A DNA stretch of 14,016 bases from Armatimonadetes bacterium CG06_land_8_20_14_3_00_66_21 (lineage in GTDB: Bacteria > Armatimonadota > Abditibacteriia > CG2-30-66-41): NCBI GenBank assembly GCA_002779825.1, contig PEVN01000166.1, forward strand, positions 1 through 14,016, read 5' to 3'. Of this stretch, positions 1 through 14,016 are shown piece after piece; within the stretch, counting starts at the first letter, position 1; every line of letters begins with the position of its first letter. The position numbers were made by a program, and so were the translations under genes. The notes under the pieces were generated by a model. It was not told the DNA's origin, did not search any database, and was given only the letters and a program-made list of their open reading frames with translations.

Positions 1-214
1 GCACGTGGTCGGTCCCCACCGCGAGATGGGCGAGTCACACGTGTTCGAGGACATCATGCAGCTTGTCGACTGGGCGCGCGAAGGGAAGCCCAGCCTCGCC
101 ACAGCCGAGCACGCCCGCCACGTCATTGAGATCTTCGAGGCCGGCTACCGCGCGGCGGAGACCGGCGAGACCCAAACGCTCACGACAACATTCGCGCCGC
201 CCGAGGGCGCCTGA
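1..214 (+). CDS. Gfo/Idh/MocA-family oxidoreductase, C-terminal fragment (5' end lies outside the window; reading frame runs from position 2, stop TGA 212-214)
   Basis: Translation ...HVFEDIMQLVDWAREGKPSLATAEHARHVIEIFEAGYRAAETGETQTL matches the C-terminal alpha/beta domain pattern of Gfo/Idh/MocA oxidoreductases (h-v-ie-i-eA-y-Sa-tG-kt-v-L). The frame is open back to position 2, so the real start is upstream of the window. Confidence 0.55.
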   Translation, partial: HVVGPHREMGESHVFEDIMQLVDWAREGKPSLATAEHARHVIEIFEAGYRAAETGETQTLTTTFAPPEGA

Positions 215-300
215 GGACCCGCGCCCTTACACGACCCGCTACCGGCAGACCAAGTGCGCGGGCGGCAGGAGAGCTGGGCCCGCTGCGGAGGGGCGGCCGG

Positions 301-1155
301 TCACCCCTTCATCCCCGTAACGGCAATCCCCTGGATGAACGTCCGTTGGGTGAAGAAGAACAGGATGATCACCGGGAGCACGATGATGGTGCAGGCGGCC
401 ATGAGCATGTTCCACTCGGTGCCGCCGTGCTGGCTCTGGTAGAACTGGAGACCGAGGGCGAGGGTGAAGTGCTTCTGGTCGGTCAGGTAGATGAGCGGCC
501 CCAGGAAGTCGTTCCAGGCGTAGAGGAAGTGGAACAGGGCGACGACGGCCAGGGCGGGCTTGGCCAACGGCAGGATAATCCGCCAGAAGATACCGAACTC
601 GGAGCAACCGTCGACTCGGGCGGCGTCGGATAGCTCTTCGGGAATGGTGCGGAAAAACTGCCGGAGCAGGAAGATGTTGAAGGCGCTGCCGAAGAACGCG
701 GGCACCCACAGCGGCTTGAACGAGCCGATCCAGCCGAGGTGCTTGAACAGCGCGAATACGGCGACCATGGTCACTGGGAACGGCACCATCATCGTCGCCA
801 GCGTGACTGCGAACAGCAGGTCGCGGCCCTTCCACTTCAAGCGGGCGAAGCCGTACGCGACGAGTGCGTTGGACAGCACCGTGCCCGCCACGCCGAGTAC
901 TGCCAGGTACAGCGTGTTCAGCGTGTACCGCAGGAAGGGAATGTAGCCGACCTGATCGCTCTGGTAGGTGATGGCCTTCCAGTAGTTGCTCAACTGAAAG
1001 GTGGACGGGATCCACTGCGGCGGGACCTTCATCGTCTCCTCGATGGGCTTCAGCGAAGTGGAGACCATCCAGAACAGCGGGAACAGGAACACGATCGACA
1101 AGCCGATCAGGATCGCGTGGATGAGGAACTTGGCCTGGGGGGATTTGGCTTCCAT
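301..1155 (-). CDS. carbohydrate ABC transporter permease, MalG/UgpE-like (CUT1 family)
   Basis: 284-aa polytopic membrane protein with an EAA loop motif (EELSDAARVDGCSEFGIFWRIILPLAKPAL). It is the last gene of the SBP-permease-permease operon. ATG start at 1153-1155. Confidence 0.9.
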   Translation of the reverse strand: MEAKSPQAKFLIHAILIGLSIVFLFPLFWMVSTSLKPIEETMKVPPQWIPSTFQLSNYWKAITYQSDQVGYIPFLRYTLNTLYLAVLGVAGTVLSNALVAYGFARLKWKGRDLLFAVTLATMMVPFPVTMVAVFALFKHLGWIGSFKPLWVPAFFGSAFNIFLLRQFFRTIPEELSDAARVDGCSEFGIFWRIILPLAKPALAVVALFHFLYAWNDFLGPLIYLTDQKHFTLALGLQFYQSQHGGTEWNMLMAACTIIVLPVIILFFFTQRTFIQGIAVTGMKG

Positions 1156-1215
1156 GGGGGCAGGGCAATAGGTCGTATGAGTCCTATGGGTCCTTATGAA
1201 GGGCGCGGTGCCCGC

Positions 1216-2100
1216 TCACCCTCCTTCGTAGTACACCAACCGCTCCGAAAACTTCAGCGCCAGCAGCGTCAGCACCAGGATGATCAGGAACATGATCCAC
1301 GCCATGGCGCTGGCGTAGCCCATGCGCAGGTACGAGAACGCGTTGTCGTACAGGTACATGGCGAAGAAGTAGGTCGAGCGCGCCGGCTGGCCGCGCGGCG
1401 ACATGACATAGGGCACGGCGAAGAACTGAAACACGCCGATCAACCCCATGATGGTGTTGAACAGAATCACCGGCGAGACCATGGGGAGGGTAACGTGACG
1501 AACCTTCTGCCCCCAGTTGGCACCATCCAACTCGGCGGCTTCGTAGAGCTGCTGCGGGGCGCTTTGCAGACCGGCAAGGTAGATGACCACGGCGTGACCG
1601 ACGCCCCAGAGCGTGAGGAGAACCAGCGCCGGCTTCGCCCAGAACGGATCGCTCAGCCAGCCAGGTCCCTTGATCCCGATCAGGCCGAGAACGTGGTTGA
1701 GCACTCCGTGCTCGCCGTTGAAGATCCACAACCACAGGATCGCCAACGCCACCATCGGCACCAGCGAGGGGACGAAGAAGATGGTCCGGTAGACGGTCAT
1801 CCCGCGCACGCCCGTATTGAGCAAGATCGCCAATCCGAGCGACACCACCACGCCCAACGGGAGAGCAAACGCGGCGTAGCCGAGCGTGTTCCCAAGCGCC
1901 TTCCAGAACACTTCATCAGTGAACAGGTCGGCGTAGTTGCCCAGCCCGATGAACTGCGGCTTCATCAGGACCGAATACTCGCACAGGCTGAAGTAGAACG
2001 AGGCGATGATGGGGTAGAGCAGGAACACGCTCAGCCCGACGAACCAGGGGGAGACGAAGCCGAGACCGTTGCGGAGGGTGCGTTTCTCTTGCCTAGTCAT
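1216..2100 (-). CDS. carbohydrate ABC transporter permease, MalF/UgpA-like (CUT1 family)
   Basis: 294-aa membrane protein with an EAA motif (QLYEAAELDGANWGQKVRHVTLPMVSPVI). Its ATG at 2098-2100 lies 3 nt from the SBP stop codon (2104-2106), so the two are tightly coupled. Confidence 0.9.
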   Translation of the reverse strand: MTRQEKRTLRNGLGFVSPWFVGLSVFLLYPIIASFYFSLCEYSVLMKPQFIGLGNYADLFTDEVFWKALGNTLGYAAFALPLGVVVSLGLAILLNTGVRGMTVYRTIFFVPSLVPMVALAILWLWIFNGEHGVLNHVLGLIGIKGPGWLSDPFWAKPALVLLTLWGVGHAVVIYLAGLQSAPQQLYEAAELDGANWGQKVRHVTLPMVSPVILFNTIMGLIGVFQFFAVPYVMSPRGQPARSTYFFAMYLYDNAFSYLRMGYASAMAWIMFLIILVLTLLALKFSERLVYYEGG

Positions 2101-2103
2101 GGC

Positions 2104-3435
2104 TCAGTGCTCCAGCCGCGCTTCGCGGCGGAGACCGCGGTCGAGCTTCTTCTGCATCCGCTGTTGGACGATGTCCAGGGCTTCCTTGGGCGCCCTCTTC
2201 TGCAGCCAGAGGTGATCGAACGCGTTGTTCATCTCGTCGGCGTATTCGTTCCACATGCCGAGCTTGGGGGTGCTGAAGGCGTTCTTGCTCTTCGCCAGGT
2301 CGATGAAGACCTCGATGTATGGGTTTGGGTGCTTTCTCAGAAACTCCGCGCTTACCTTCCGGAGCGGCGTGAACTTGCGCTGCCCCATGTTGAGCAGCTC
2401 GCTCCCGCCCTGGGAGTTCACAAACCGAATGAACTCGAACGCTTCGTCGGGATGCTTGGCACCCGTCGGGATGACCAGCACATCGGCTTCGGCGTCGGTC
2501 ACGTTGGCCAGGTCGGGCCGACCGGCTGGGTGCGGGAAGGGCGCGGCGCCCCACTCGAGCTTAGGCGCGTACTTGCTGATGAAGTTGTGCATCCAGACGC
2601 CCTGAATCTCCATCGCGACTGTTTCGGACAGGAACGCGTTCTGCGGCGAGGAGAAGTTGCCGAAGCCGCTCTGGAATGTCTGCAGCGCCGTGGCTCCGTA
2701 CTTCTTGGAGTAGGACTGCACCCACTCGAATGCCCGGATATTCTCCGGGGAGTTGGCTGTGATCTTCGACTTGCCGTCCCACATACGGCCGCCAAAGAAG
2801 TACCCCCACGCCCAGTTCCACCAGCCAGGCTCGGAGGGCATGAAGCCCATCCGGACGATTTTGCCGTCCTTGTCCCGCGTGGTCAGCTTCTCGGCGAAGG
2901 CATCCAGTTCCTCGATGGTCCGGGGCGGGCGGTTTGGGTCCAGACCGGCTTCGCGGAACAGGCGCTTGTTCCAGTGCAGGGCGATGGTCGCCGGAGTCGT
3001 GAGCAGTGCCCACGTTTTCCCGCGGTGCCTGCACAGATCCCAGAACACCGGTAGGAAGTCCTGCTCACCGATTCCTTCTCGCTTCAGGTAGGGGTCGAGG
3101 CAGAGCACTGCGTTCTTGTCCGCGTAGACGTTGACGTTGGAGGACCACAGCCCTGCCACGTCGGGCGGGATCCCACCCGCGGTCGCCATCAGCATCTTCC
3201 GGTCGACCTGGCTAACAGTGAGCAGGTTTACGTGAATGCGGCTCTGCGACTCGTTGAAGGCATTCACAGTCGCCCGCATCGCGTCGCCCTCGAAGCCGGT
3301 CCACTTCTCCCAGTAGTCGATGGTAATCGGGCCGCCGGAGCGGCCGTCGTGGCGGCAGCCGGTAGTGGTGGCGACTACAAGGATTGCAGCGATCATCAAC
3401 GACGGGAGTGCAGTTGCGCGAGAGGGCTTCAGCAT
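2104..3435 (-). CDS. ABC transporter substrate-binding lipoprotein (extracellular solute-binding protein family 1, sugar/oligosaccharide type)
   Basis: 443 aa. N-terminal signal peptide followed by a Cys (…AILVVATTTGCRHDG), consistent with a lipobox. Size and Trp/Tyr/Asn-rich composition are typical of CUT1 solute-binding proteins. It sits directly upstream of the two permeases. Confidence 0.88.
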   Translation of the reverse strand: MLKPSRATALPSLMIAAILVVATTTGCRHDGRSGGPITIDYWEKWTGFEGDAMRATVNAFNESQSRIHVNLLTVSQVDRKMLMATAGGIPPDVAGLWSSNVNVYADKNAVLCLDPYLKREGIGEQDFLPVFWDLCRHRGKTWALLTTPATIALHWNKRLFREAGLDPNRPPRTIEELDAFAEKLTTRDKDGKIVRMGFMPSEPGWWNWAWGYFFGGRMWDGKSKITANSPENIRAFEWVQSYSKKYGATALQTFQSGFGNFSSPQNAFLSETVAMEIQGVWMHNFISKYAPKLEWGAAPFPHPAGRPDLANVTDAEADVLVIPTGAKHPDEAFEFIRFVNSQGGSELLNMGQRKFTPLRKVSAEFLRKHPNPYIEVFIDLAKSKNAFSTPKLGMWNEYADEMNNAFDHLWLQKRAPKEALDIVQQRMQKKLDRGLRREARLEH

Positions 3436-3476
3436 GGTGGAGCAGCAATGGAGGAGTTGCCGGAGGAGTACGCGGT

Positions 3477-4937
3477 TCAGGGGCTGCCATCCTTCTGTGG
3501 GTCTGAATCAGCCGTGTTCGGCCCTCTACTCGCGTCGAGCGCTTCGACCAACCCACGCGCTTTGTCCAGCGTCTCCTGGTACTCCGCTTCAGGGACTGAG
3601 TCGGCCACGATGCCTCCCCCGGCGTGGAAGTAGGCAACGCCGTCCTTCACAACCATGGTCCGGATGACGATGTTCAGGTCCAGGCTGCCGTCGAAGCCCA
3701 GGTAGCCGAGGGCGCCGGTGTAGACACCGCGTTTCGTCGGCTCCAGTTCGTCGATGATCTCCATCGCGCGGATCTTGGGCGCGCCGGTGATGGAGCCACC
3801 GGGAAATGTAGCCCGGAGCAGATCGACCTGGTCGCAGTCTTCGCGAAGCGTTGCCTCGATGGTGGACGTTAGATGATGCACGGTGGGGAATGTCTCCAGG
3901 GCCGCGTGCTCCGTGACGGCTACAGAGCCGGTCTCGGCCACGCGCCCCAAGTCGTTGCGCTCCAAGTCCACGATCATGAGGTGCTCGGCATGGTCCTTCT
4001 CACTGGCGAGGAGTTCCTGAGCGTTCCGCCTGTCTGAGTCGGCGTCGGCGCCCCGCGGGCGAGTACCCTTGATGGGGCGCGTGTGCATTCGGCGGGAGTT
4101 CGGGTCGAGCCACAGGAAGCGTTCCGGCGAGGCGCTGAGGAGCTGGAACGGTCCGTAGTCGAGGTAGGCAGCGAACGGGGCCGGGTTGCCGGATCGCAGT
4201 CGTCGGTACAGGTCCCACGAAGGCACCGGCATCGCCGCGGCAAACCGCTGCGACAGGTTCACCTGGTAGATATCCCCGGCGAGGATGTAGTCCTGTGCGC
4301 GCCGGACGGCGTCGACATACGCCTGGTGGGTGAAGTTGCTGGTGAGGGGAGGAGCGTGGTGGGCGTCGCGCGAGGCGAGGGGCGGGACGGGGGGCAGCGG
4401 GCTGGGGGGGGGGTCGGTCAAGAGGCGCGTGGCGAGTTCCTCCGCGAGGCGGGCTTCGACTCCCTGGCCGGTGTCCGTCCAACCGACCCAACTCCGGCCC
4501 GACTCGTGGTCGAACGTCACGACCACCGGGCAGAAGTGGACGAACATGTCGGGTAGCCCCAGGTCGTCCACAACCGTCCGGGGCAGCTCCTCGACGAAGT
4601 GGCAGAGATCGTACCCGAGATAACCGACGGCGGCCCCGCACAGCGGCGCACCAGGGCCCGGCGCCGGCGTGCTGAACTCACCCAGCAAGTCTCGCAGAAC
4701 CGAGAAGGGGTCACCGACGAACTGCTGCCGCAGGCCGCCGCGTGAGACGGTCACTTGCCGGCCGTGGCACCGGACCGAGGTGCCCGAAGAGAAGAGCAGG
4801 AGGGAGCGCTCTGCGTGCCGGCCCAACCGCATGCCGCTGTCGAGAAAGGCGTCTCCCGGTCCTCGCCTGAGAAGGTCAAAGGCCGCATGCGCAGCAATCG
4901 GGGTGGAAAGTTCGGTGAGCTGGGTGGACCAAGCTGC
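3477..4937 (-). CDS. pabB: aminodeoxychorismate synthase component I (PabB-type chorismate-binding enzyme). The 5' boundary is uncertain: probably the TTG at 4935-4937 or the ATG ~105 nt further in. The tracked ORF reaching 5351 is over-extended.
   Basis: The C-terminal 300 aa align closely with E. coli PabB as I remember it: SPERF, TRPIKGTRPRG, DRRNAQELLASEKDHAEHLMIVDLERNDLGRV, FPGGSITGAPKIRAMEIIDELEP, GGGIVADSVPEAEYQET. The Lys in PIKGT is typical of ADC synthase, where TrpE has PIAGT. The first ~138 codons of the tracked ORF are R/P/S-rich, overlap the upstream gene by 350 nt in another frame, and have no homology. The homologous N-terminus begins near …LAAWSTQLTELSTPIAAHAAFDLLRRGPGDAFLDSG, which parallels E. 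coli MKTLSPAV…AMLLHSG. Confidence 0.75.
   Translation of the reverse strand, partial: AAWSTQLTELSTPIAAHAAFDLLRRGPGDAFLDSGMRLGRHAERSLLLFSSGTSVRCHGRQVTVSRGGLRQQFVGDPFSVLRDLLGEFSTPAPGPGAPLCGAAVGYLGYDLCHFVEELPRTVVDDLGLPDMFVHFCPVVVTFDHESGRSWVGWTDTGQGVEARLAEELATRLLTDPPPSPLPPVPPLASRDAHHAPPLTSNFTHQAYVDAVRRAQDYILAGDIYQVNLSQRFAAAMPVPSWDLYRRLRSGNPAPFAAYLDYGPFQLLSASPERFLWLDPNSRRMHTRPIKGTRPRGADADSDRRNAQELLASEKDHAEHLMIVDLERNDLGRVAETGSVAVTEHAALETFPTVHHLTSTIEATLREDCDQVDLLRATFPGGSITGAPKIRAMEIIDELEPTKRGVYTGALGYLGFDGSLDLNIVIRTMVVKDGVAYFHAGGGIVADSVPEAEYQETLDKARGLVEALDASRGPNTADSDPQKDGSP
4404..4413. repeat. G10 homopolymer run inside the pabB coding sequence (C10 on the coding strand, encoding DPPPS)
   Basis: Read directly from the sequence: gctgggggggggg tcgg. 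It lies within a Pro-rich linker insertion (TDPPPSPLPPVPPLASRD). Confidence 0.9.
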
Positions 4938-5001
4938 CAAGGTGTTCGCCGTTGACCAATCGCTGCCGGGCGACGACTGTCGTCCCCGCGCCCGTTGCGG
5001 G

Positions 5002-6813
5002 CTACTTGCAGATTCGCTCCATCTCTCGGTAGGCGCCTCGCTCTGCGCGGACGACCTCCTCCAGGGCGCTTGCGGAGGCGTCGCACTCCTGCTTGAATGC
5101 CTCGCCCGAGGAACTCTCCGCGCGGGCCGAGACCGACGTGGCTCGAGGCGCGCCGAGGGACACCAAGCGAAGCTTCTCGACGGCTTGGTCGAAGTTGGCG
5201 GCTGCCGCCAACGCTGGACCGCGCTCCTGATTGGGGAGTTCGCTGCCCGCGGTGCGCAGGAACGCGGCGGCCGCCTTTCGAGCCGCAATGAGGCGAGGCA
5301 GGGCGGAAACGGCCCAGCGGACCAATTGGTCGCGGTCGCCCTTGTCGACACCCGAGTAGTCCCGCGGTGTGCGGAGATCGTCCGTCAACTCTCCGTAGGC
5401 GCGGAACCCGGCCGCAAAGGAACCGGACCGCGTGTCTTGCATGATCCGCGTGCCGGCGAGGATCGCGCGTTCGGCCGTCTGCGCCGGACTCTGAGGGGTG
5501 CCGCTCTTTCGGAACGCGTACCAGGAGTAGCGAGCGCCACGACCGCTCATGGGGTCAAGGGAAGGGCAGGACGCGGTCGACCAGCTCTTCGCGAGTTGCT
5601 CCCAGGAGATGGAGCGGGTGACGCCTTGGGCGTCAACCAGAGCCACCGTCTTCGCCGCCTCGTCGTAGCCGGCAACTGTAACCCAACTGGGTGGCGGGAG
5701 CACCAGTGGCACAAAGGTGGGTTGCTTCTCCTCCAGGGCTTTGCGCAGAGACTCGAAACCCTCCTGGAAGTTCGTGGCTTGCTGCTGCGTAGCCTTGAGT
5801 CCAAGCGCGCGGCAGATGGCCTCGAGGGGGTTCTGCGGCAGATAGTCGGCGCCGCCCAGGCGGTCATTCCTGTCGTAGTAGAACTGAAAGGCCAGCCCGG
5901 AGATGCCCATCAGATGGCTGGCCGAAGCCTGCACACCAAGCGACCGGAGGCAGTCTTCGACGCTCCGAACGAACGGAGGAGGCGTGAAGTGCTCCCGGGC
6001 TCCTCCCGGCGCGCGCCGGATGTCGACGAGAACCTGGCGGGGTTCGGCCTTCTCCTCAGCCGCCTTCGTTCGGTCAGTGTAGTAGTAGATCCACCCGACG
6101 GCCTTCTTCGCTTCCTCAGCCCATTTGGTGTTGGGGTACTTGTCGATGACCTTCTGGTATTCCTCGATTGCCCGGGAGGCGTCGCGCCGAACATTCTCCT
6201 GAGCCCGAGCGAGGTAGAACTGAGCTTCGGCACAGTGCGGCAGGTCCGCAGCGTAGTCCCGAAGGACCGCGGTGAAATGCTCGGCACCCTCCCACTTGCC
6301 CTCCTCGTAGTCGATCTTCCCCAGTGCCAGCCGCACTTCGGCCGATAGTGCCGGATCTCCGCCGTAGTCCGCCAGGGCCCGGTTGTACGCGGCCACTGCT
6401 TCCTCGTAGCGGTGCAGTTTCCGGTAGGACAGCTCGCCGATGCGCAACTGCGCCGCCGGGGCGAGTTTGCTGTTGGGGAACTGGGAGACGAGGCGCTGGT
6501 AGGCGCGCACTCCCTCGGCGGGTTTGTCGAGGTGATTGGCGAGGACCTCCGCCTGTCGCTCGAGGGCGCGGTCTGCCCATTCACTGTCGGGATGGTCGTC
6601 ACTCAGCAGCCGGTAATAGCGGAGCGCCTCCTGGTATTGCTTGCGGGCGTAGTGCTGTTCCGCCTTCTCAAAGATGTCCTTGTCCGACGCGCCGCAGCCG
6701 ACCAGTGCCACCACTGCCAGGAGCGCAAGGGCAGTACGCGCGGCTCGAGGAAAGGGACGCCTCCAGCGGGATGCCGTCGATGAGTTGGGTGGGTGGCTTG
6801 ACATCTGAAACAC
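5002..6813 (-). CDS. outer-membrane-type lipoprotein: N-terminal TPR repeats (BamD/YbgF-like) fused to a C-terminal ~330-aa domain resembling BtrH_N/DUF4872 (papain-like fold). The tracked start is GTG at 6811-6813; an in-frame ATG lies at 6802-6804.
   Basis: Signal peptide with lipobox (…ALLAVVALVGCGASDKD). After it come several TPR-like helices (YARKQYQEALRYYRLL…, YRKLHRYEEAVAAYNRAL…, AEAQFYLARAQ…, EEYQKVIDKYPNTKWAEEAK). The C-terminal half carries DCLRSLGVQASASHLMGISGLAFQFYYD and later SWVTVAGYDEAAKTVALVDAQG. These resemble the BtrH_N consensus (C..aL…G…sE…GLgsGLgFfY … HavvvvGYDe) as recalled from memory. Confidence 0.7.
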   Translation of the reverse strand: MFQMSSHPPNSSTASRWRRPFPRAARTALALLAVVALVGCGASDKDIFEKAEQHYARKQYQEALRYYRLLSDDHPDSEWADRALERQAEVLANHLDKPAEGVRAYQRLVSQFPNSKLAPAAQLRIGELSYRKLHRYEEAVAAYNRALADYGGDPALSAEVRLALGKIDYEEGKWEGAEHFTAVLRDYAADLPHCAEAQFYLARAQENVRRDASRAIEEYQKVIDKYPNTKWAEEAKKAVGWIYYYTDRTKAAEEKAEPRQVLVDIRRAPGGAREHFTPPPFVRSVEDCLRSLGVQASASHLMGISGLAFQFYYDRNDRLGGADYLPQNPLEAICRALGLKATQQQATNFQEGFESLRKALEEKQPTFVPLVLPPPSWVTVAGYDEAAKTVALVDAQGVTRSISWEQLAKSWSTASCPSLDPMSGRGARYSWYAFRKSGTPQSPAQTAERAILAGTRIMQDTRSGSFAAGFRAYGELTDDLRTPRDYSGVDKGDRDQLVRWAVSALPRLIAARKAAAAFLRTAGSELPNQERGPALAAAANFDQAVEKLRLVSLGAPRATSVSARAESSSGEAFKQECDASASALEEVVRAERGAYREMERICK

Positions 6814-6884
6814 ACCAGCTTGCCCGGCCAGTCGCGATAGCCGACGAACAGCTCTCGCCGGACCCTCGCACGCCGTAACCTCCG

Positions 6885-6914
6885 AGTATAGCGCTCCCCT
6901 TCACAGGCTGTCAA
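6885..6914 (-). promoter_or_regulatory. sigma70-type promoter on the minus strand: TTGACA-N18-TATACT, driving the TPR-lipoprotein/pabB/ABC cluster
   Basis: The minus strand reads cgttcgTTGACAgcctgtgaaggggagcgcTATACTcgg. TTGACA is the reverse complement of 6909-6914 and TATACT of 6885-6890. The pair lies 65-75 nt upstream of the start at 6804/6813. Confidence 0.45.
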
Positions 6915-6968
6915 CGAACGCACCGGCGCTTTGCCGCGAGCCGGGCAGGGGAAGGGCCTGGTTGCCGA

Positions 6969-6997
6969 TTGACACCGAAACCTCTCGGCGTTAGAAT
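6969..6997 (+). promoter_or_regulatory. sigma70-type promoter on the plus strand: TTGACA-N17-TAGAAT, driving the NfeD-like/flotillin operon
   Basis: The plus strand reads gccgaTTGACAccgaaacctctcggcgtTAGAATcgttcc. TTGACA is at 6969-6974 and TAGAAT at 6992-6997, with the optimal 17-nt spacer. The predicted transcription start is near 7004, 48 nt upstream of the first candidate start codon at 7052. Confidence 0.5.
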
Positions 6998-7051
6998 CGT
7001 TCCTCACGTAGCTCGACGGCAAGAGGCAGTGCGCTTCGCAAGCTCCATCGG

Positions 7052-8134
7052 TTGACTCCGCAGCCGCGAGACCTTCCGAAACTCACAGCAGCAGGGCGCG
7101 ACGGCCTTCCCGGCCTCTTCGGTGCACAACAGGTGGTGTTCTCCGTGCAGGGACTCAAGACGCTGTTCGAGTGGTACAACCTGATCTACACGCTCCCGTT
7201 TGGGCTTTCGGTCCTCCTCATGATCGTCTCCGCCATGGGGCTGGGAGGGCACGACCACGACGTTTCCCCCGACGGCGGCCACGACCTCGACGCCGACCAC
7301 GATGTGGACGTAGATCATGACGTCGACGTAGATCACGACGTGGCCCTCGACCATGACCTCGACGTCGACCACGACCTGGCCGTGGACCACGACGTAGACG
7401 TGAACCACGACGTGGACATGGACCACGAAGTGGATCTGGACCATGACGCCGATCTGGACCACGACCTGGATCATGAGGTCGACTACGACTTGGCCGCCGA
7501 CCACGACGCTGACGCGGACGCGGACCACGGCGCAGACCACGAGGTCCATGCCTCCTCGAATGGAACGCACCACGGCGCGGATCATGGGGAAGGCATCTTC
7601 AAGGCACTCCTTTCACTGCTGGGTGTCGGCAAGGTACCGATCACCGTGCTTGTTCAGTCCTTCATGATCGCGTGGGCGATCATCGGGTGGAATGCGAACA
7701 TCTGGCTCGCCAAGGCCATGCGCGTGCCGGAGGTGTACATCCTCCCCTCCATGGCGGTCTCGTTCTTCGGCGCGCTCGCGGTGACGCGGCTCATGGCGAC
7801 GTGTCTGCACAAGCTCATGCCCAGTTCCGAGACCTACGCAAGGAGCCCGCTGGAGCTGCTCAGTGCTTCGGGCACCGCCCTCTTCAGGATTGACGGAAGC
7901 GGGGGGTACGCCGATGTCTACGATGAACAAGGAACGCTCCACCGGGTCCGCTGCCGTAGCCGTTACGGCGAGGTGCCGAAGGGCGCCAAGGTGACGCTGG
8001 TGGACTACCATGGCGACGGCCTCTACGAAGTAGCCGCCCCTACCCACAACGGTAGTAACGGCAACGGAGAAGCCAAAACGGGACCCGAGCCGCGGACGCG
8101 CTCCGTGGAAGTGCAAGCCGAGACGAGAAACTGA
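7052..8134 (+). CDS. NfeD-like (YuaF-type) membrane protein carrying an inserted His/Asp-rich hexapeptide repeat module. TTG start at 7052; GTG 7133/7136 is an alternative.
   Basis: Topology: TM1 (LIYTLPFGLSVLLMIVSAMGLGG), then a ~112-aa H/D-rich low-complexity region, then TM2/TM3 (VPITVLVQSFMIAWAIIGW…, VYILPSMAVSFFGALAVTRLMATCL). The C-terminus (GTALFRIDGSGGYADVYDEQGTLHRVRCRSRYGEVPKGAKVTLVDYHGDGLYEVAAP) has the pattern of the NfeD OB-fold beta-barrel. It sits immediately upstream of a flotillin gene, the canonical NfeD-SPFH pairing seen in B. subtilis yuaF-floT. Confidence 0.7.
   Translation: MTPQPRDLPKLTAAGRDGLPGLFGAQQVVFSVQGLKTLFEWYNLIYTLPFGLSVLLMIVSAMGLGGHDHDVSPDGGHDLDADHDVDVDHDVDVDHDVALDHDLDVDHDLAVDHDVDVNHDVDMDHEVDLDHDADLDHDLDHEVDYDLAADHDADADADHGADHEVHASSNGTHHGADHGEGIFKALLSLLGVGKVPITVLVQSFMIAWAIIGWNANIWLAKAMRVPEVYILPSMAVSFFGALAVTRLMATCLHKLMPSSETYARSPLELLSASGTALFRIDGSGGYADVYDEQGTLHRVRCRSRYGEVPKGAKVTLVDYHGDGLYEVAAPTHNGSNGNGEAKTGPEPRTRSVEVQAETRN
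7280..7525 (+). repeat. In-frame degenerate 18-nt tandem repeat, about 10 full units plus 3 partial, encoding (H-D-x-D-x-D)n. The whole H/D-rich region spans 7250-7585.
   Basis: Units read from the sequence: cacgacctcgacgccgac / cacgatgtggacgtagat / catgacgtcgacgtagat / cacgacgtggccctcgac / catgacctcgacgtcgac / cacgacctggccgtggac / cacgacgtagacgtgaac / cacgacgtggacatggac / cacgaagtggatctggac / catgacgccgatctggac, and so on. Units differ mainly at synonymous third positions (cac/cat, gac/gat, gtg/gta/gtc). Confidence 0.9.
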
Positions 8135-8172
8135 CCGCAACGAGATCGGCGCGGCACACCCGCGCACAACAA

Positions 8173-8179
8173 AAGGAGG
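8173..8179 (+). promoter_or_regulatory. Shine-Dalgarno site AAGGAGG, 8 nt upstream of the flotillin ATG
   Basis: The sequence is aaAAGGAGGagtcgcagATG. This is the canonical core with ideal spacing. Confidence 0.8.
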
Positions 8180-8187
8180 AGTCGCAG

Positions 8188-10098
8188 ATGAGTTGGGGGA
8201 TTCTGTTAGGCATGTTGGGCGTGGCGCTGATGATCACGCCATTCGTGAAGGGGAGCGTCGGCTCGCTGGGAGGCCTTATCCTCATGGGGTTCGGCGGGCT
8301 GCTCTTCGTGATCGACGTGCTGGTAATGGTCATCACGAAGCTGTATGTCAAGACCAGCGCCAATCAGGCATTCGTGCGCACGGGCAGCGGCGGGTCCAAG
8401 GTCGTGCTGGACGGCGGGTGCTTGGTCGTGCCCATCATCCACCGGGTGGTCCCGGTCTCGCTGGAAACCATGAAGCTCGATGTCGACCGGCGTGACCAGG
8501 AAGCGTTGATCACCAAGGACAACCTGCGCGTCGACGTGACCGGAGAGTTCTACATCAAGGTGGAGCCTGCCCGAGACGACATTCTCGCCGCCGCCCGCTC
8601 GTTGGGTGAGAAGTCGATCAACCCGGCGAATGTCTCGCAACTGGTCTTTGAGAAGCTGGTATCCGCGATTCGAAGCGTGGCTGCCACCATGGACTTGGTC
8701 GACCTGCACATGCGCCGAGACGACTTCGCGACCGCTGTCTTCGACAGCGTCCAGAACGAGCTGAAACCCAATGGTCTCACGCTGGAGACGGTCACCATCT
8801 CCCAGTTGGACCAGACCGACCCCAGCATGCTGAGCGATGAGAACATCTTCGATGCGCAAGGCAAGAAGAAGATCACCGAGATCACGGCTGCGGCCAAAGT
8901 CGAGCGGAACCGTTTGGAGCGCATGGCGGAGCAGGAGACAACGAAGCAGGACGTCGAGACGCGACAGCGCGTGCTGGACCTGGAGAAGGCCCAGAAGGAG
9001 GCCGAAGCGACCCAAGCCGCCGAGGTTGCCAACATCCAGGCTGGCAAGCAGCGCGAGAAGCAGGCGTACCAGATCGAGCAGGACCGGGCCGTGCTGGAAG
9101 CGGAGATCGCCAAGGACCAGCAAGTGAAGGAGCGGCAGATCGCCCAGGAGCAGTCGGTGGAGGTCGCTTCCATCCAGCGCGACAAGGCGTTGATCCTGCA
9201 ACGCCAGGAAAAGGAACAGACCGACATTGCTCGCGAGCAGGCGGTCCAGTCGTCGGAGATCGCCAAGGCGCAGGCCGTCGAGGTCGCCGAGCGGCAGAAG
9301 CAGATCGCCGTTGCCGAGCGGGATGCAGAACGCGCTCGCGCCGAGGAAGAAGCCCTGAAAGCTCAGGCTGCTCGGGAGTCCGCCAACCAGCAGGTCATCA
9401 CTGTTACCGCCGTCGCCGAAGCCGACCGCCATGCTCAGACCAAGCTGATCGAAGCCAAACAGGTGATCGAGCAGCAGAAGATCAAGGACCAGACGGAAGC
9501 CGACGTGCTGGCCTACACCGCCGTCAAAGAAGCTGAAGGCGACCAGGAAGCCGCCCAGCGAAAGGCAGACGCCCAACTCACCCTCGCCCAAGCCGCCGCC
9601 GAATCGAAGAAGCGCGAATCCGAAGGCGACAAGGCCATCAAGATGGTGGACGTCGAAGTCGAGCGCGAGCGGGTCAACGTCGAGCAGGCTCGGGTTGAGG
9701 TCGAGCGGCAGTCGCTGGAGAACACGCAGACCTTCGATAGGGCGGGCATTGAGCTGCAGAAGATCAAGCTCACCATCGAGGCCCAAAAGGAAGTGCAGAT
9801 CGCGCTGGCCAACAACATTGGTCAGTTCATGAGCCGCGGGCAATACACCGTGTACGGCGACCCCGACACGATGGCCAGCATGATGGAGCGGTTCATGAAA
9901 GGGCTGTCAATCGGGACGTTCGCCGACGGTCTGATAGCGGGCGCCTCGGAGGACGCCAAAGACGCCGTCCGCGGCCTCGCGCAGACCCTTGGCGGCCCAG
10001 TGGGCGCAGCCGTGGAGAAGCTCGTTGGCTCGGACACACCCGACGAGCCGGCACCCTCCGCGCCGGCCGATGCCGAGCCCGCCACCGCGGAGGCATAG
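8188..10098 (+). CDS. floT: flotillin-like protein, FloT/YuaG family: N-terminal membrane hairpin, SPFH/band-7 domain, long coiled coil
   Basis: 636 aa. Hydrophobic N-terminus. The SPFH region (FVRTGSGGSKVVLDGGCLVVPIIHRVVPVSLETMKLDV…ALITKDNLRVDVTGEFYIKV) aligns with B. subtilis FloT (VRGGGTFVLPVFQQAEPLSLLSSKLDV…) as recalled. After it comes ~350 aa of E/A/Q/K-rich heptad-like sequence (EAEATQAAEVANIQAG…ERQKQIAVAERDAERARAEEEALKAQAA…) and an acidic Pro/Ala tail. A strong RBS precedes it and the NfeD-like gene sits just upstream. Confidence 0.88.
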   Translation: MSWGILLGMLGVALMITPFVKGSVGSLGGLILMGFGGLLFVIDVLVMVITKLYVKTSANQAFVRTGSGGSKVVLDGGCLVVPIIHRVVPVSLETMKLDVDRRDQEALITKDNLRVDVTGEFYIKVEPARDDILAAARSLGEKSINPANVSQLVFEKLVSAIRSVAATMDLVDLHMRRDDFATAVFDSVQNELKPNGLTLETVTISQLDQTDPSMLSDENIFDAQGKKKITEITAAAKVERNRLERMAEQETTKQDVETRQRVLDLEKAQKEAEATQAAEVANIQAGKQREKQAYQIEQDRAVLEAEIAKDQQVKERQIAQEQSVEVASIQRDKALILQRQEKEQTDIAREQAVQSSEIAKAQAVEVAERQKQIAVAERDAERARAEEEALKAQAARESANQQVITVTAVAEADRHAQTKLIEAKQVIEQQKIKDQTEADVLAYTAVKEAEGDQEAAQRKADAQLTLAQAAAESKKRESEGDKAIKMVDVEVERERVNVEQARVEVERQSLENTQTFDRAGIELQKIKLTIEAQKEVQIALANNIGQFMSRGQYTVYGDPDTMASMMERFMKGLSIGTFADGLIAGASEDAKDAVRGLAQTLGGPVGAAVEKLVGSDTPDEPAPSAPADAEPATAEA

Positions 10099-10182
10099 CG
10101 CAAGCCGCAACAGACTCGACCAGGGAGCCGGCAGAGGGCTGGCTGGCTGCGCGCTTCGCGACTCCGGCCAGTCCCGCACCCC

Positions 10183-10189
10183 AAGGAGG
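10183..10189 (+). promoter_or_regulatory. Shine-Dalgarno site AAGGAGG, 8 nt upstream of the GTG start at 10198
   Basis: The sequence is ccAAGGAGGgacccgtcGTG. The core and spacing are identical to the flotillin RBS. Confidence 0.7.
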
Positions 10190-10197
10190 GACCCGTC

Positions 10198-10683
10198 GTG
10201 TCAACCGGACCACACGCCGTGCCAAGCCAGGAAGCCCTCACCGATCCGGTGGCCCAGTGGACGGGCCCGGCCGTGGACACCTTGGCCGTCTTCTGCAGCG
10301 ATGGGCGCTTCAAGCAGATGGTCGACCAGTTCCTCCGCGACGGGCTGAAGATTCCCAACTGCGATGTCTTCGCCGTGCCGGGCGGAGCAGGCTGGCTTAC
10401 CGTCGGGATGTTCAATCACAAGGAATGCGATGTCGCCAACCGCTGGCTCGACGCGCTGATCCAGAAACACAACCTGAAACGGGCCGTGCTGCTCGCCCAC
10501 GAAGATTGCGCCTTCTACAAGGAGAAATGCAAGGGTTCCAGCCCCCTGGAGATCCAGAAGCAGCAACTCACCGAGCTGCACGAGGCGGGCGACCGTCTGC
10601 AACGCATGGCCGGCAGTGTTCAGGTGGAGCTGTACTATGCGGACATCGTTGACGATCACGTGACGTTCAAACGGGTGAAGTAG
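10198..10683 (+). CDS. small (161 aa) protein with beta-carbonic-anhydrase-like zinc-ligand motifs (CxDxR … HxxC); a divergent or truncated beta-CA-fold protein
   Basis: FCSDGRF (C33, D35, R37), then CDVFAVPGGAG, then AVLLAHEDCAFY (H101, C104). Order and spacing mirror the beta-CA signatures C[SA]DSR … VxRNAGN … hhhhGHxxCG (compare E. coli CynT ISCSDSRL…VIRNAGN…IVICGHSNCGA, recalled). Third codon positions are GC-rich on the + frame, and an RBS precedes the GTG. The length-matched antisense ORF 10201-10686 is rejected. Confidence 0.45.
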   Translation: MSTGPHAVPSQEALTDPVAQWTGPAVDTLAVFCSDGRFKQMVDQFLRDGLKIPNCDVFAVPGGAGWLTVGMFNHKECDVANRWLDALIQKHNLKRAVLLAHEDCAFYKEKCKGSSPLEIQKQQLTELHEAGDRLQRMAGSVQVELYYADIVDDHVTFKRVK

Positions 10684-10727
10684 CACGGGACCGCCTCAAC
10701 CGTCCTCAACTGCCGCGGCGCGACCTC

Positions 10728-11699
10728 GTGTGGTTTGGGCTGTTTGCATTTGTCTACGTCCCTTTGTGCGTGACCCTCGAGGCCTCGGTGCCCTGCCGAG
10801 GCGGCCCCGACGAAGGGGACCACTACCTCTACATCCGCGCCCTGGGCGACACCTGCCGCCTCCCTATCCGGGCTCCGGTGTATGCGGGCCGCCTGGGAGG
10901 CGGTGACCGCGTCAGTCGCCAGATTCAGCATCCGCCCCTCTACTACCTGGTCGGAGCGGTGGTCTATCGGCTGGCAAAGCCTTGGGGACCGGCCGCGACA
11001 TGGAAGGCAGTGCGCGGCCTGAACATTGCTCTGGGTGTCGCAGCGCTGTACTTGTTGCTTCTCACCGCGCGCTTGGTCCTTTCCCGTCGTCGCGACCTCT
11101 CCTTCGCCCCGGTTGTGCTGTGTGCCTTGGTGCCCGCCTCCGCCTACTTGTCGTGTGTGGTCACCAATGAGACGGGGGCTGCGCCGTGCACCAGCGCAGT
11201 TCAGTATGCTTTGGCGCGCGTGATCTGGCTGGGACCGTCTCGACGCCGACTCGCGGCCTTGGCGCTGCTCCTCGGCTTGGGGGGGCTGACCAAGTACACG
11301 GTGCTGGTGTGGCTCCCTGCCTGCTTGTGCGTGGTGCCAGTGGTCGTGTGGCGTGCCCGGCGCAGTTGGCGCTTGGTGGCGGAGGGCGTAACGACCATCC
11401 TCACCGTCCCCTTGGCTGTGTGTGGGGGATGGTTCGTCCGGAACTACCTTCTCTACGGAGTCCCGGTGTTTCGCAACGTGATCAGCCCGCCCCTGTTCCC
11501 CGGCGGCTTGCCGCAGATCGCGGCTCTCCCTGACGAGCTGCTCCTGTCCTGCTGCCACTTGATCTACCGCTCGATCCCGATGGCGTGGACCCCCTATTGG
11601 CTGATCGCGCAAACCCCGGGCTGGACACGACTGCTCTGCAGAGGATCGTTCGTGATCACCGCGCCTATTGCGCTCGGCGCGGTTTTCAGGGCGGTTTAG
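10728..11699 (+). CDS. GT-C-fold glycosyltransferase, ArnT/PMT-like (GT83/GT39 type). This is the N-terminal 323 codons and it ends at an in-frame TAG (11697-11699).
   Basis: The first-loop motif PDEGDHYLYIRALGDT…KPWGP parallels E. coli ArnT [20 protein letters not shown]…KPIAGYW (recalled). A LLLGLGGLTKYTVLVWLPA segment parallels the ArnT GMGVMTKGFLALAVP motif. About 9-10 TM helices. GTG start. Confidence 0.7.
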   Translation: MWFGLFAFVYVPLCVTLEASVPCRGGPDEGDHYLYIRALGDTCRLPIRAPVYAGRLGGGDRVSRQIQHPPLYYLVGAVVYRLAKPWGPAATWKAVRGLNIALGVAALYLLLLTARLVLSRRRDLSFAPVVLCALVPASAYLSCVVTNETGAAPCTSAVQYALARVIWLGPSRRRLAALALLLGLGGLTKYTVLVWLPACLCVVPVVVWRARRSWRLVAEGVTTILTVPLAVCGGWFVRNYLLYGVPVFRNVISPPLFPGGLPQIAALPDELLLSCCHLIYRSIPMAWTPYWLIAQTPGWTRLLCRGSFVITAPIALGAVFRAV

Positions 11700-11717
11700 G
11701 TTCGGCGGCGGTGGGCC

Positions 11718-12041
11718 GTGCGCCGGCTCCGCCGCCGTGAGCTGTTCTTCCTGACCTCCACGCTGGCACTCCTCCTGCTCATTCTGGGGGGCTTCCGAGA
11801 GGCGTGTCTCGTGGATATGGGGGTGATGGTCTTCGTGGGACGCTACTACGTCGCCCTCTTCCCTGCCACGGCCCTATTGGCGGTGTGGTGGCTTCTCTCG
11901 CTGGGTAGGGCTTGGCGTCGTGCACCGCGGGCCGCCGCGTGTCTCGGCGTCTGCCTCCTTCTGGCCGTCTGGGCGGCCGCTTACCTGGGGGTCTCTCGGT
12001 TCTACAACCTCTACGGAGTCGGGGCGCCGCCGGAGTTGTAG
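11718..12041 (+). CDS. C-terminal three-TM segment, most likely the continuation of the GT-C glycosyltransferase. It is in the same frame as 10728-11699, separated only by the TAG and six sense codons.
   Basis: 11718 and 10728 are both multiples of 3. Reading through TAG gives …FRAV*VRRRWAVRRLRRRELFFLTSTLALLLLILGG… with 3 further TM helices. The combined length of ~438 codons and ~12-13 TM helices matches full-length GT-C enzymes. Confidence 0.5.
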   Translation: MRRLRRRELFFLTSTLALLLLILGGFREACLVDMGVMVFVGRYYVALFPATALLAVWWLLSLGRAWRRAPRAAACLGVCLLLAVWAAAYLGVSRFYNLYGVGAPPEL

Positions 12042-12085
12042 TCCGCCGCCGTCTGGCTCCCGCCCCGAAGGCCACAGGGCAAACG

Positions 12086-14011
12086 TCAGAACGAGAAGAT
12101 CTCGTGCCCCCGCACACCGACTGCGAAGTCGATGAGCACCCACAGCCCAGCGCTGACGAACTCCCCGAGGATCAGTCCGAAGGCGCCGGGCAGCACTTGG
12201 CGGTAGACGGCGCTCCCGCCGTACTTCATTACAGCGCTCTTCGCAGTCCACCCCAGCAGGATGGCGAACCAGAAGTTGACCATCGGCCACGTGGCGCCCA
12301 TGAGGTAGCCGATGGGATGGAACGGCCACCACAAGAACGTCCGGTGCAGGACCTGGATGAAGACCATGCTGCCCGCACCCGCCAGCATCGTCCAGACCGA
12401 CGGGAGCGACCGCGGCTCGCCGTTGACCAGCAGGTTCGCCGTCCACGAGCAGTACAGGTTCTTCGTGTAGTAGGTGGTGAACCACGTGTTGAGAGTCAAC
12501 CCGCCGTTGGCGTACACGAGGCGCATGTACGACCAGTACGACACCGCCGCCGCCACCACCACGCTCGCCGCCATCGCGCCGAGCAGCCTGCGTCGCTGGA
12601 TGCCGGCCATGTCGCCGATCTTCAGCCCCTGCACCAGGCAGGGCATGAGCGGGCTGCGGTTGTCCAGCATGAGCAGGTGGTCGAAGAACACCAGCATGGT
12701 CACGCGGGCCGGCCCGAACGCTTTGCTGCCGACGGCCGCGAAGAGCATGTTGATCGGCCGGAACGGGTGCTGTACATACAGCATCCCGCCTTCGCACACC
12801 AGCCGAACCGCGACCGTATGCACCAGGAAGAACAGCACGAACAACACGGTCGTGCTCCCCGCGCCCGCGCCGGCTGCGCCACCCCAGGCGATGATCGTCG
12901 CCATTCCCGCAACCAGGCAGAGCAGCGTGCCGCGCGCTGAGAGCGCTTCCTTCGCGGTGTAGTCGCGCTGCCGCCCCAGCACGCACTCCCACCACTGGCG
13001 CAGGTGCGGCCGCATCCCCCAGAACCCATACAGCCCGGCGACGACGATGCCGCCGATCATCTGGTGGGCGACGAACGCCTTCACCGGAAAGGCCTGCACG
13101 TTGGGCATCGGGAACCCCGCCATTGCCCCGAGGAGCTGCTGCACCAGGAAGAAGAAGTAGAAGAACCACAAGCTGAACGACAGGTTCGTCGGCAGCAGGA
13201 ACGTCAGCCCGATGATGCTGAACAGCACGCGGAGGCGCAGCAGTTGAAGGGTGTCCCACGGCTTCCCCGTGAAGTACTGGCCCAGCGGGATGAGGTGCAC
13301 GTTGATCGCCGGCACAAAGGGGAAATGGAAGTGCAGCCCGTTGAGGGTGTGGAGGCAGAACGGCAACAGGAAGCACCACCACATGAGCTTGTTGCGCACC
13401 AGCGTTGGCAGCGCCCACCGGTGCCCCGCCTCGACCTCCGCAAACTGAACGGGCAACTGCACCAGCGGGAACACCAGCTTCTCGTTCTCCACCCACTGCC
13501 GCCGCAGCAACGCCGACAGCCCGAAGAGCACCAAGTACACACCCGCAATCAGGATGCCCCACCCCAACACCGGACTCCACCAGGCACTCCACGGAATCGG
13601 CGACGAGGGCGCCCCTTCGTACAGCCCGATCACCGCCTGTTCGGAGCCGGGATGTAGCCACTTCGGGAGGTTGGGGAGGATCAGCTCATCCCACCGGTTC
13701 TCCGGTCCGGCGAAGTAGAAGGGCCCGGCGATGTACGGGATCAGCAGCCCGACCAGCCCGAACGACGGGATCCCCGCCGCGACCAGCAGCATCACGAACA
13801 CAGTCAGCAACTCAGCCCGCGTCAACTGCTTGCCGAGGCGCGCCAGCAGCGGGTTGACGCCGACGGACAGCACGAGAAACAGGAAGAAGCTGGCAACGGG
13901 GAACGCCGTCAGACCCACCCATGTGCCCTTCATCACCAGGTCGCTGTAGGGGATGGCGAGGGCGAGGGCGGCTGAGAGGAGGAGACCGAGGAGGAAGGAG
14001 CGGAGGGTCAT
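12086..14011 (-). CDS. large polytopic integral membrane protein of unknown function (641 aa, at least 14 predicted TM helices, Trp/Phe-rich)
   Basis: ATG at 14009-14011. Strongly hydrophobic segments run along the whole length (LLGLLLSAALALAI, LTAFPVASFFLFLVLSV, LLTVFVMLLVAAGIPSFGLVGLLIPYIAG, WGILIAGVYLVLFGL, and others). The overlapping same-strand ORF 11874-13661 is R/G/A-rich junk. I recognise no family confidently. Confidence 0.75.
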   Translation of the reverse strand: MTLRSFLLGLLLSAALALAIPYSDLVMKGTWVGLTAFPVASFFLFLVLSVGVNPLLARLGKQLTRAELLTVFVMLLVAAGIPSFGLVGLLIPYIAGPFYFAGPENRWDELILPNLPKWLHPGSEQAVIGLYEGAPSSPIPWSAWWSPVLGWGILIAGVYLVLFGLSALLRRQWVENEKLVFPLVQLPVQFAEVEAGHRWALPTLVRNKLMWWCFLLPFCLHTLNGLHFHFPFVPAINVHLIPLGQYFTGKPWDTLQLLRLRVLFSIIGLTFLLPTNLSFSLWFFYFFFLVQQLLGAMAGFPMPNVQAFPVKAFVAHQMIGGIVVAGLYGFWGMRPHLRQWWECVLGRQRDYTAKEALSARGTLLCLVAGMATIIAWGGAAGAGAGSTTVLFVLFFLVHTVAVRLVCEGGMLYVQHPFRPINMLFAAVGSKAFGPARVTMLVFFDHLLMLDNRSPLMPCLVQGLKIGDMAGIQRRRLLGAMAASVVVAAAVSYWSYMRLVYANGGLTLNTWFTTYYTKNLYCSWTANLLVNGEPRSLPSVWTMLAGAGSMVFIQVLHRTFLWWPFHPIGYLMGATWPMVNFWFAILLGWTAKSAVMKYGGSAVYRQVLPGAFGLILGEFVSAGLWVLIDFAVGVRGHEIFSF

Positions 14012-14016
14012 GGAGT

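Follow-up and report, generated by a model that had tools for sequence, protein, structure and literature searches.

Enzymes of the ArnT, PMT_2 and DUF2142 kind span the membrane many times and, in the families that have been characterized, pass on a sugar taken from a polyprenyl-phosphate donor at the outer face of the membrane. DUF2142 proteins are described as polytopic membrane proteins of cell-wall polysaccharide loci (PMC9746298). Here, we describe a gene of this kind in a 14,016-nucleotide stretch of DNA from Armatimonadetes bacterium CG06_land_8_20_14_3_00_66_21, an uncultured groundwater organism (contig PEVN01000166.1, positions 1 to 14,016, forward strand), a stretch that is referred to below, at its full length, as the window. 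The gene is interrupted by an in-frame amber codon, TAG, which divides it into two reading frames of 323 and 107 codons, referred to as piece 1 and piece 2; joined, these give a 437-residue protein of the GT-C glycosyltransferase kind. We conclude that the interruption probably represents a nonsense mutation, recent and fixed, in an accessory gene of the GT-C kind and that it has probably cost the gene its function.

Among enzymes of solved structure, ArnT (GT83, 4-amino-4-deoxy-L-arabinose transferase; PDB 5f15/5ezm) is the best match to the joined protein. The AlphaFold2 model of the joined sequence forms one compact GT-C domain (predicted local distance difference test score, pLDDT, 89.7; predicted template modelling score, pTM, 0.91), in which the helices contributed by piece 2 (residues 336 to 422) reach a pLDDT of about 90, and it contains about 12 long helices, so that the 12 to 13 transmembrane (TM) helices proposed in the first-pass annotation of this DNA are roughly right. 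When this model was compared with the PDB by Foldseek, the first 38 matches were all GT-C enzymes, with a probability of 1.0 and a TM-score of about 0.5; ArnT 5f15 ranked first (E 2.5e-5, probability 1.0, TM-score 0.53), followed by AglB, Pmt4, STT3, DPY19, AftB, ALG and Emb. ArnT and the window protein have in common a polytopic GT-C fold and an acidic motif in the first extracytoplasmic loop; however, their sequences are only about 18% identical, ArnT is a single polypeptide, and the window protein, at 437 residues compared with about 540, lacks the C-terminal periplasmic domain of ArnT.

Sequence comparisons place the protein in the same group at a greater distance. Neither piece, nor the joined sequence, matched any Pfam or NCBIfam model, the PMT_2 and DUF2142 models being unmatched at E ≤ 1, and a profile search against the sequences of the PDB returned nothing meaningful (best E 0.07, cytochrome bo3 subunit IV). 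An exhaustive phmmer search with the joined 437 residues, in contrast to these model searches, returned 1238 relatives (E 2e-27 to homologues), the nearest of which is about 30% identical. The relatives that were aligned (n = 59) do match Pfam: PF13231 (PMT_2) in 42, PF09913 (DUF2142) in 21 and PF02366 (PMT) in 13. The motifs GPDE..H, QHPPLYY and GRY are common to the joined protein and its PMT_2 and DUF2142 homologues, from which the window protein differs in falling below the family thresholds, in its identity of about 30% and in its interruption by TAG. Membership in the GT-C group, of the ArnT/PMT_2/DUF2142 kind, is therefore supported by the predicted fold and by transitive homology, below Pfam thresholds, and the ArnT/PMT-like call made at first pass holds on this remote evidence of fold matches and relatives' Pfam matches. 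The protein adds a divergent member to a superfamily already known.

The layout of the interrupted gene is as follows.

10728 to 11699, plus strand: piece 1 of the GT-C gene; in the list of open reading frames (ORFs), a GTG start and 323 codons followed by TAG; extends from TM helix 1 to the helix at residues 299 to 322.
10809 to 10814, plus strand: codons GAC GAA of D28 and E29, the family-invariant acidic pair of the first extracytoplasmic loop (motif GPDEGDH), located by alignment.
11688 to 11748, plus strand: RNA hairpin across the stop and the restart codon, found by folding; 9-bp stem CGGCGGCGG/CCGCCGCCG, with GTG 11718 at the tip.
11697 to 11699, plus strand: in-frame amber codon TAG, next base G, read from the sequence and found in all 21 population loci.
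11700 to 11717, plus strand: in-frame 18-nt spacer of six sense codons (VRRRWA), within the Arg-rich loop that links two TM helices.
11718 to 12041, plus strand: piece 2; in the ORF list, GTG to TAG, 107 codons; carries the last three TM helices.
11814 to 11846, plus strand: conserved residues of piece 2, located by alignment and numbered on the joined protein (D363, codon 11814 to 11816; G371-R372-Y373, codons 11838 to 11846).

The two pieces lie in the same frame, both start positions being divisible by 3, and translation over the junction reads GAVFRAV, stop, VRRRWA, V or M, RRLRRRELFF. The coordinates given at first pass, the shared frame and the single TAG followed by six sense codons were all confirmed from the ORF list and the translation. 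On the plus strand between the pieces, no promoter-like or terminator-like signal was found. At the other end of the gene, the family profile extends about 10 codons upstream of GTG 10728 (...RPQLPRRDL-; window 10653 to 10727), where no ATG, GTG or TTG is present; CTG 10710 is the protein start in some GenBank records (MPRRDL...). As called from GTG 10728, the protein has TM1 at its very beginning and is without the positively charged N-terminal tail of its homologues, which could reflect an unusual start codon or could be a second sign of erosion.

Several lines of evidence indicate that the pieces were once a single gene. Apart from two self-hits, the top phmmer matches are single proteins of 420 to 460 residues that align in one stretch over query positions of about 5 to 430. 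A profile built from 58 homologues, with the window sequence left out, matches piece 1 at profile positions 10 to 336 (258 bits, E 2.7e-77) and piece 2 at positions 341 to 439 (32 bits, E 8e-9); since both pieces match the one profile consecutively and in the same frame, we take them to be colinear parts of one ancestral gene, beyond what chance would give. Residues that are invariant in the family are found before the stop as well as after it. In alignments of 59 and of 12 sequences, those of piece 1 are D28, E29, H32 and P70; in piece 2, R372 is invariant among the 59 sequences, and the 12 sequences all share D363, R372 and Y373 and nearly all share G371. On its own, piece 1 is therefore unlikely to be functional. 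Judging from what is known of GT-C enzymes in general, D28, E29 and H32 are presumably catalytic or metal-binding residues.

The interruption is peculiar to this lineage. A family survey by DNA pattern (QxQHPPLYY), which is independent of gene calls, yielded 80 family loci, in which 64 distinct full-length copies were uninterrupted, one carried a frameshift and one an in-frame TAG; all relatives with full coverage across the junction are single polypeptides, so that the orthologue comparison proposed at first pass gave a uniform answer. The column of the window stop falls in the Arg-rich loop, which has the same length in intact homologues, with no insertion. Judged against the 64 intact homologues, the window gene thus has a premature stop with D363, G371, R372 and Y373 beyond it, as is expected of a pseudogene. 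In the databases searched, no relatives at about 35% to 98% identity were found. Two features of the family at large were also noted. The frameshifted member (L056, 642 to 1405) passes from frame 1 into frame 2 at about profile position 240 and may represent either a pseudogene or a fault of assembly, and tandem paralogous GT-C copies are present in some relatives: three copies in the low-GC relatives L072, L081, L083 and L084 (about positions 1 to 3730) and two in L063 and L082.

The copy with an in-frame TAG belongs to P0044, a member of the family about 32% identical to the window protein, and its stop lies one helix earlier than that of the window. The codon is at 2936 to 2938 of contig L039 and at 2839 to 2841 of L040 (L049 is the same contig as L040). 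On the sister contig L050, a Tyr codon occupies this position, and that is the sole difference in 1348 bp; the P0044 TAG is a segregating nonsense allele, a plain Tyr/stop polymorphism. Sporadic nonsense alleles, at different positions, are therefore a feature of this family. No conserved recoding site was found in the family, and no relative has TAG at the column of the window stop.

The stop codon is real. The TAG and the 323 + 107 layout are present in all 21 loci read from the source population (JGI, ENA, Logan and NCBI metagenome-assembled genomes [MAGs]), which represent at least five data sources, three assemblers (those of the ENA loci being MEGAHIT and SPAdes), different groups and many samples. 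Piece 1 is identical to OIO93824.1 from Armatimonadetes bacterium CG2_30_66_41, both pieces appear, as deposited or indexed entries, on dozens of contigs across NCBI, JGI, ENA and Logan, and the exact 107-residue product is indexed in 91 blocks of a sequence collection, whereas a search of 5.8 billion protein clusters returned no intact 437-residue version. A sequencing or assembly error that hides a sense codon at 11697 to 11699 was among the explanations first listed; it has in its favor only the prior that MAG consensus sequences hold occasional errors, and with these data it can be dismissed for practical purposes. All loci with the split are at least 99.5% identical, and the population, at about 99.9% identity, is one nearly clonal lineage.

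Based on these data, we propose that a single base change made the amber codon in the Arg-rich loop that precedes the last three TM helices and that the amber allele became fixed in the nearly clonal population. Translation would then end at the TAG and give a 323-residue protein without D363, G371, R372 and Y373; enzyme activity would be lost, and the gene would be a young pseudogene in which further lesions have not yet accumulated. In this proposal, we infer the loss of function and the recency of the change, and the cytoplasmic position of the loop follows from the positive-inside rule. Of the explanations offered at first pass, the one that remains is a nonsense mutation, either alone or followed by a restart at GTG 11718.

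The junction itself has a feature that might suggest regulated decoding. The hairpin at 11688 to 11748 has a minimum free energy of −38.6 kcal/mol (z = −3.6 compared with shuffled sequences), is not a repeated element, and exceeds in stability every other 66-nt fold on the plus strand of the whole window. In a control set of 64 intact homologues, however, the strongest hairpin of the gene lay in the same loop in 8, with about 5 expected by chance, and several of these same-loop hairpins reach −41 to −45 kcal/mol. Consecutive arginine codons of the CGG and CGC types, in a gene rich in GC, probably account for the hairpin, and a role for it as a coupling or read-through device was set aside on the ground that equally strong hairpins often occur in the same loop of unsplit genes. 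A fold of equal stability (−38.5 kcal/mol in 66 nt) is present on the minus strand at about 10021 to 10092 of the window, antisense to the 3′ end of the flotillin gene.

Two of the other explanations can be weighed on the conservation of the arrangement and on the meaning of TAG in this genome. An ancient two-gene arrangement, in which a truncated GT-C protein would work with a conserved small membrane partner, might be read from the annotations, since gene callers annotate two genes in all of the MAGs. However, a search with piece 2 alone returned only piece 2 itself and no free-standing homologue, its sequence aligns colinearly to the C terminus of single-chain homologues, and the layout occurs in no divergent orthologue; the separately conserved small membrane protein envisaged at first pass is thus unsupported, and we regard this arrangement as highly improbable. 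Read-through or recoding would have part of the ribosomes decode TAG 11697, by a near-cognate or suppressor tRNA or as pyrrolysine, possibly with the aid of the downstream hairpin, and so yield the full 437-residue enzyme. The very stable hairpin that begins 4 nt past the stop and the open, conserved frame beyond it are compatible with such decoding, but the hairpin occurs in intact genes too, the position of the stop is conserved in no relative, and the other TAG in the family is an ordinary polymorphism. Furthermore, TAG ends 5 of the 11 genes of the window, among them piece 2 and the neighbor immediately upstream, at ends expected from homologues, and the Pro_CA_2 gene stops at the same TAG in the window and in a sister locus (L013, described below). 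TAG is therefore a normal stop here, reassignment is not supported, and no tRNA gene was found within the window. Neither a conserved in-frame TAG nor avoidance of TAG as a terminator, the marks of amber read-through or of pyrrolysine use, was observed, and to our knowledge TAG followed by G is not a leaky context in bacteria. Stop-codon read-through, also raised at first pass, has gained no positive support, and we consider it very unlikely.

The explanation that deserves the most attention beside a simple loss of function is a working two-chain enzyme. Ribosomes that stop at TAG 11697 would melt the hairpin and reinitiate at GTG 11718, and the resulting 107-residue, three-helix piece would join the 323-residue, nine-helix catalytic piece in the membrane and restore the GT-C fold; we hold both the reinitiation and the reassembly to be unlikely, if well worth keeping in view. 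The break falls in an Arg-rich loop between helices that we predict to be cytoplasmic, with the next helix after the GTG, and the GTG lies within a hairpin that a ribosome terminating at the TAG would melt, an arrangement that resembles classical translational coupling. The distance from stop to start is of a suitable size: Adhin and van Duin in 1990 and Yamamoto et al. in 2016 are said to have described bacterial termination-reinitiation over distances that cover the 18-nt spacing found here. On the other hand, the split occurs in no relative, the small piece exists nowhere on its own, and a functional split would be expected either to be conserved in diverged relatives or to leave a separate family of small pieces, neither of which was seen. 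The Shine-Dalgarno-like runs before GTG 11718 are weak (GGCGG at 8 nt and GGTGGG at 2 nt upstream) compared with the AAGGAGG used by other genes in the window, and an in-frame GTG within 10 codons would arise by chance about one time in two in GC-rich coding sequence, by a rough estimate. Unsplit genes share the hairpin, both DNA polymorphisms in the gene are nonsynonymous, and a sister lineage does without the gene. The two-polypeptide enzyme with a GTG restart that was suggested at first pass thus stands as a possible outcome of the nonsense mutation, whereas a conserved layout of this type found no support. We know of no earlier example of a natural two-chain GT-C enzyme, and this one would be the first.

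A number of observations also weigh against the loss of function that we favor. No second lesion was found in either piece in the 21 loci, both pieces keep a coding signature (G+C content at third codon positions [GC3], 0.80 for piece 1 and 0.81 for piece 2), and piece 2 keeps all of its invariant residues, D363, G371, R372 and Y373 included. The ratio of the profile score of piece 2 to that of piece 1, 0.13, is at the 28th percentile of intact genes, so that no decay is detectable. The stop falls within a loop rather than a helix, and a GTG follows 18 nt on, ahead of the next helix, which is the layout that a working split would have. Fixation of the TAG says little about selection, because the population is nearly clonal, and no intact allele or close orthologue was found by which the mutation could be dated.

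The tests for selection are all weak, the diversity of the population being about 0.1%. The GT-C gene has two single-nucleotide polymorphisms (SNPs), both nonsynonymous, P289L in piece 1 and G25V in piece 2, and no synonymous SNP; the flotillin gene (outside a recombined patch) and the DUF6785 gene together have 15 synonymous SNPs and 1 nonsynonymous SNP. The Fisher comparison of the GT-C gene with these neighbors gave about 0.02, a point in favor of loss of function that is weakened by its basis of only two GT-C sites, and the contrast is no longer significant once the repeat-rich YqiJ-like gene is included. The density of amino acid variants in protein clusters, three per piece or 6 in 430 codons, is uninformative, being not clearly above that of the neighboring genes.

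The genomic context indicates that the gene is not essential at this locus. On the sister contig L013 (JGI 3300038439), the TPR, YqiJ-like, flotillin, Pro_CA_2 and DUF6785 genes occur in the same order as in the window at 80 to 95% amino acid identity (DUF6785, 90.6%; flotillin, 95%; Pro_CA_2, 80%). At 11776 to 11866 of L013, which corresponds to window positions 10684 to 12085, only 91 bp separate the convergent Pro_CA_2 and DUF6785 genes, and the 1.4-kb GT-C gene is absent; the 91-bp spacer contains a perfect palindrome, cataatcgcggacttc...gaagtccgcgattatg, that resembles a bidirectional terminator. Since the GT-C gene is absent from this syntenic locus, it is accessory, having been either gained in the lineage of the window or lost in the sister lineage, and by these sequence comparisons it is lineage specific and dispensable at the locus. 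Polarizing gain and loss by more distant DUF6785 loci was tried and abandoned: at the 25 such loci, with 42 to 57% identity, synteny with Pro_CA_2 and flotillin is lost and there is no GT-C neighbor, so that these loci cannot decide the matter. Base composition gives no sign of a foreign origin, the GC3 of the two pieces standing against 0.79 to 0.92 in the neighbors.

Other features of the neighborhood were recorded in passing. At 7052 to 8134 on the plus strand, the window encodes a membrane protein of the YqiJ/NfeD-like type that contains a long His/Asp repeat of highly acidic character (HDVDVDHDVDVDHD...), and most of the nonsynonymous polymorphism of the locus falls in this repeat region (codons 70 to 79 and 140). 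The gene lies directly upstream of the flotillin (SPFH/Band 7) gene, in the usual NfeD-flotillin pairing. Within the flotillin gene, a 120-bp patch at 8896 to 9015 carries about 25 clustered, mostly synonymous substitutions in two loci (L004 and L010), and the region outside it is at least 99.9% identical; the patch has the appearance of a short tract acquired by recombination from a diverged relative. In other loci, synonymous changes form another, less dense cluster at 8299 to 8544. In the wider neighborhood (L001, 9346 to 12482; L013, 3062 to 8935), genes for a type I phosphomannose isomerase and a GH172 glycosidase were found, together with, in L013, a ManC-like NTP transferase and PGM/PMM. 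These genes, for mannose activation and a glycosidase, give a hint of the sugar chemistry around the GT-C gene.

For annotation, these results mean that the two "hypothetical protein" entries deposited for these MAGs, such as OIO93824.1 and its 107-residue neighbor, are best read as parts of a single, interrupted gene for a GT-C glycosyltransferase, which is probably a pseudogene. To find an amber codon inside a gene of a MAG is nothing unusual, and the case described here is most likely an ordinary recent gene inactivation rather than a new kind of enzyme. If the two-chain reading were true, however, the C-terminal module of a GT-C enzyme would be able to fold and dock independently, and the locus would be a natural experiment on GT-C modularity. 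Compared with known cases of bacterial termination-reinitiation, the junction is alike in having an in-frame GTG 18 nt past the stop, at a start that lies inside a structure which an upstream ribosome would open; it differs in having no strong Shine-Dalgarno sequence, in an arrangement that is not conserved and in a hairpin that is also found in unsplit homologues.

The loss of function that we favor is reminiscent of events in Streptococcus thermophilus, where nonsense mutations in the glycosyltransferases of surface polysaccharides are a common response to phage pressure and DUF2142 proteins are found in such loci (PMC9746298). Unlike the alleles of S. thermophilus, the window allele is fixed and not polymorphic. 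What the Rgp and exopolysaccharide (EPS) glycosyltransferases of S. thermophilus under phage pressure and the Armatimonadetes gene have in common is that one nonsense mutation interrupts a glycosyltransferase gene which differs between close relatives. By this analogy, phage pressure might be a plausible reason for the fixation of the TAG. An accessory enzyme of the surface-glycan type has been truncated in this population and is absent from the same site in the sister lineage, and truncation together with absence in close relatives fits a rapid turnover of envelope-modifying genes.

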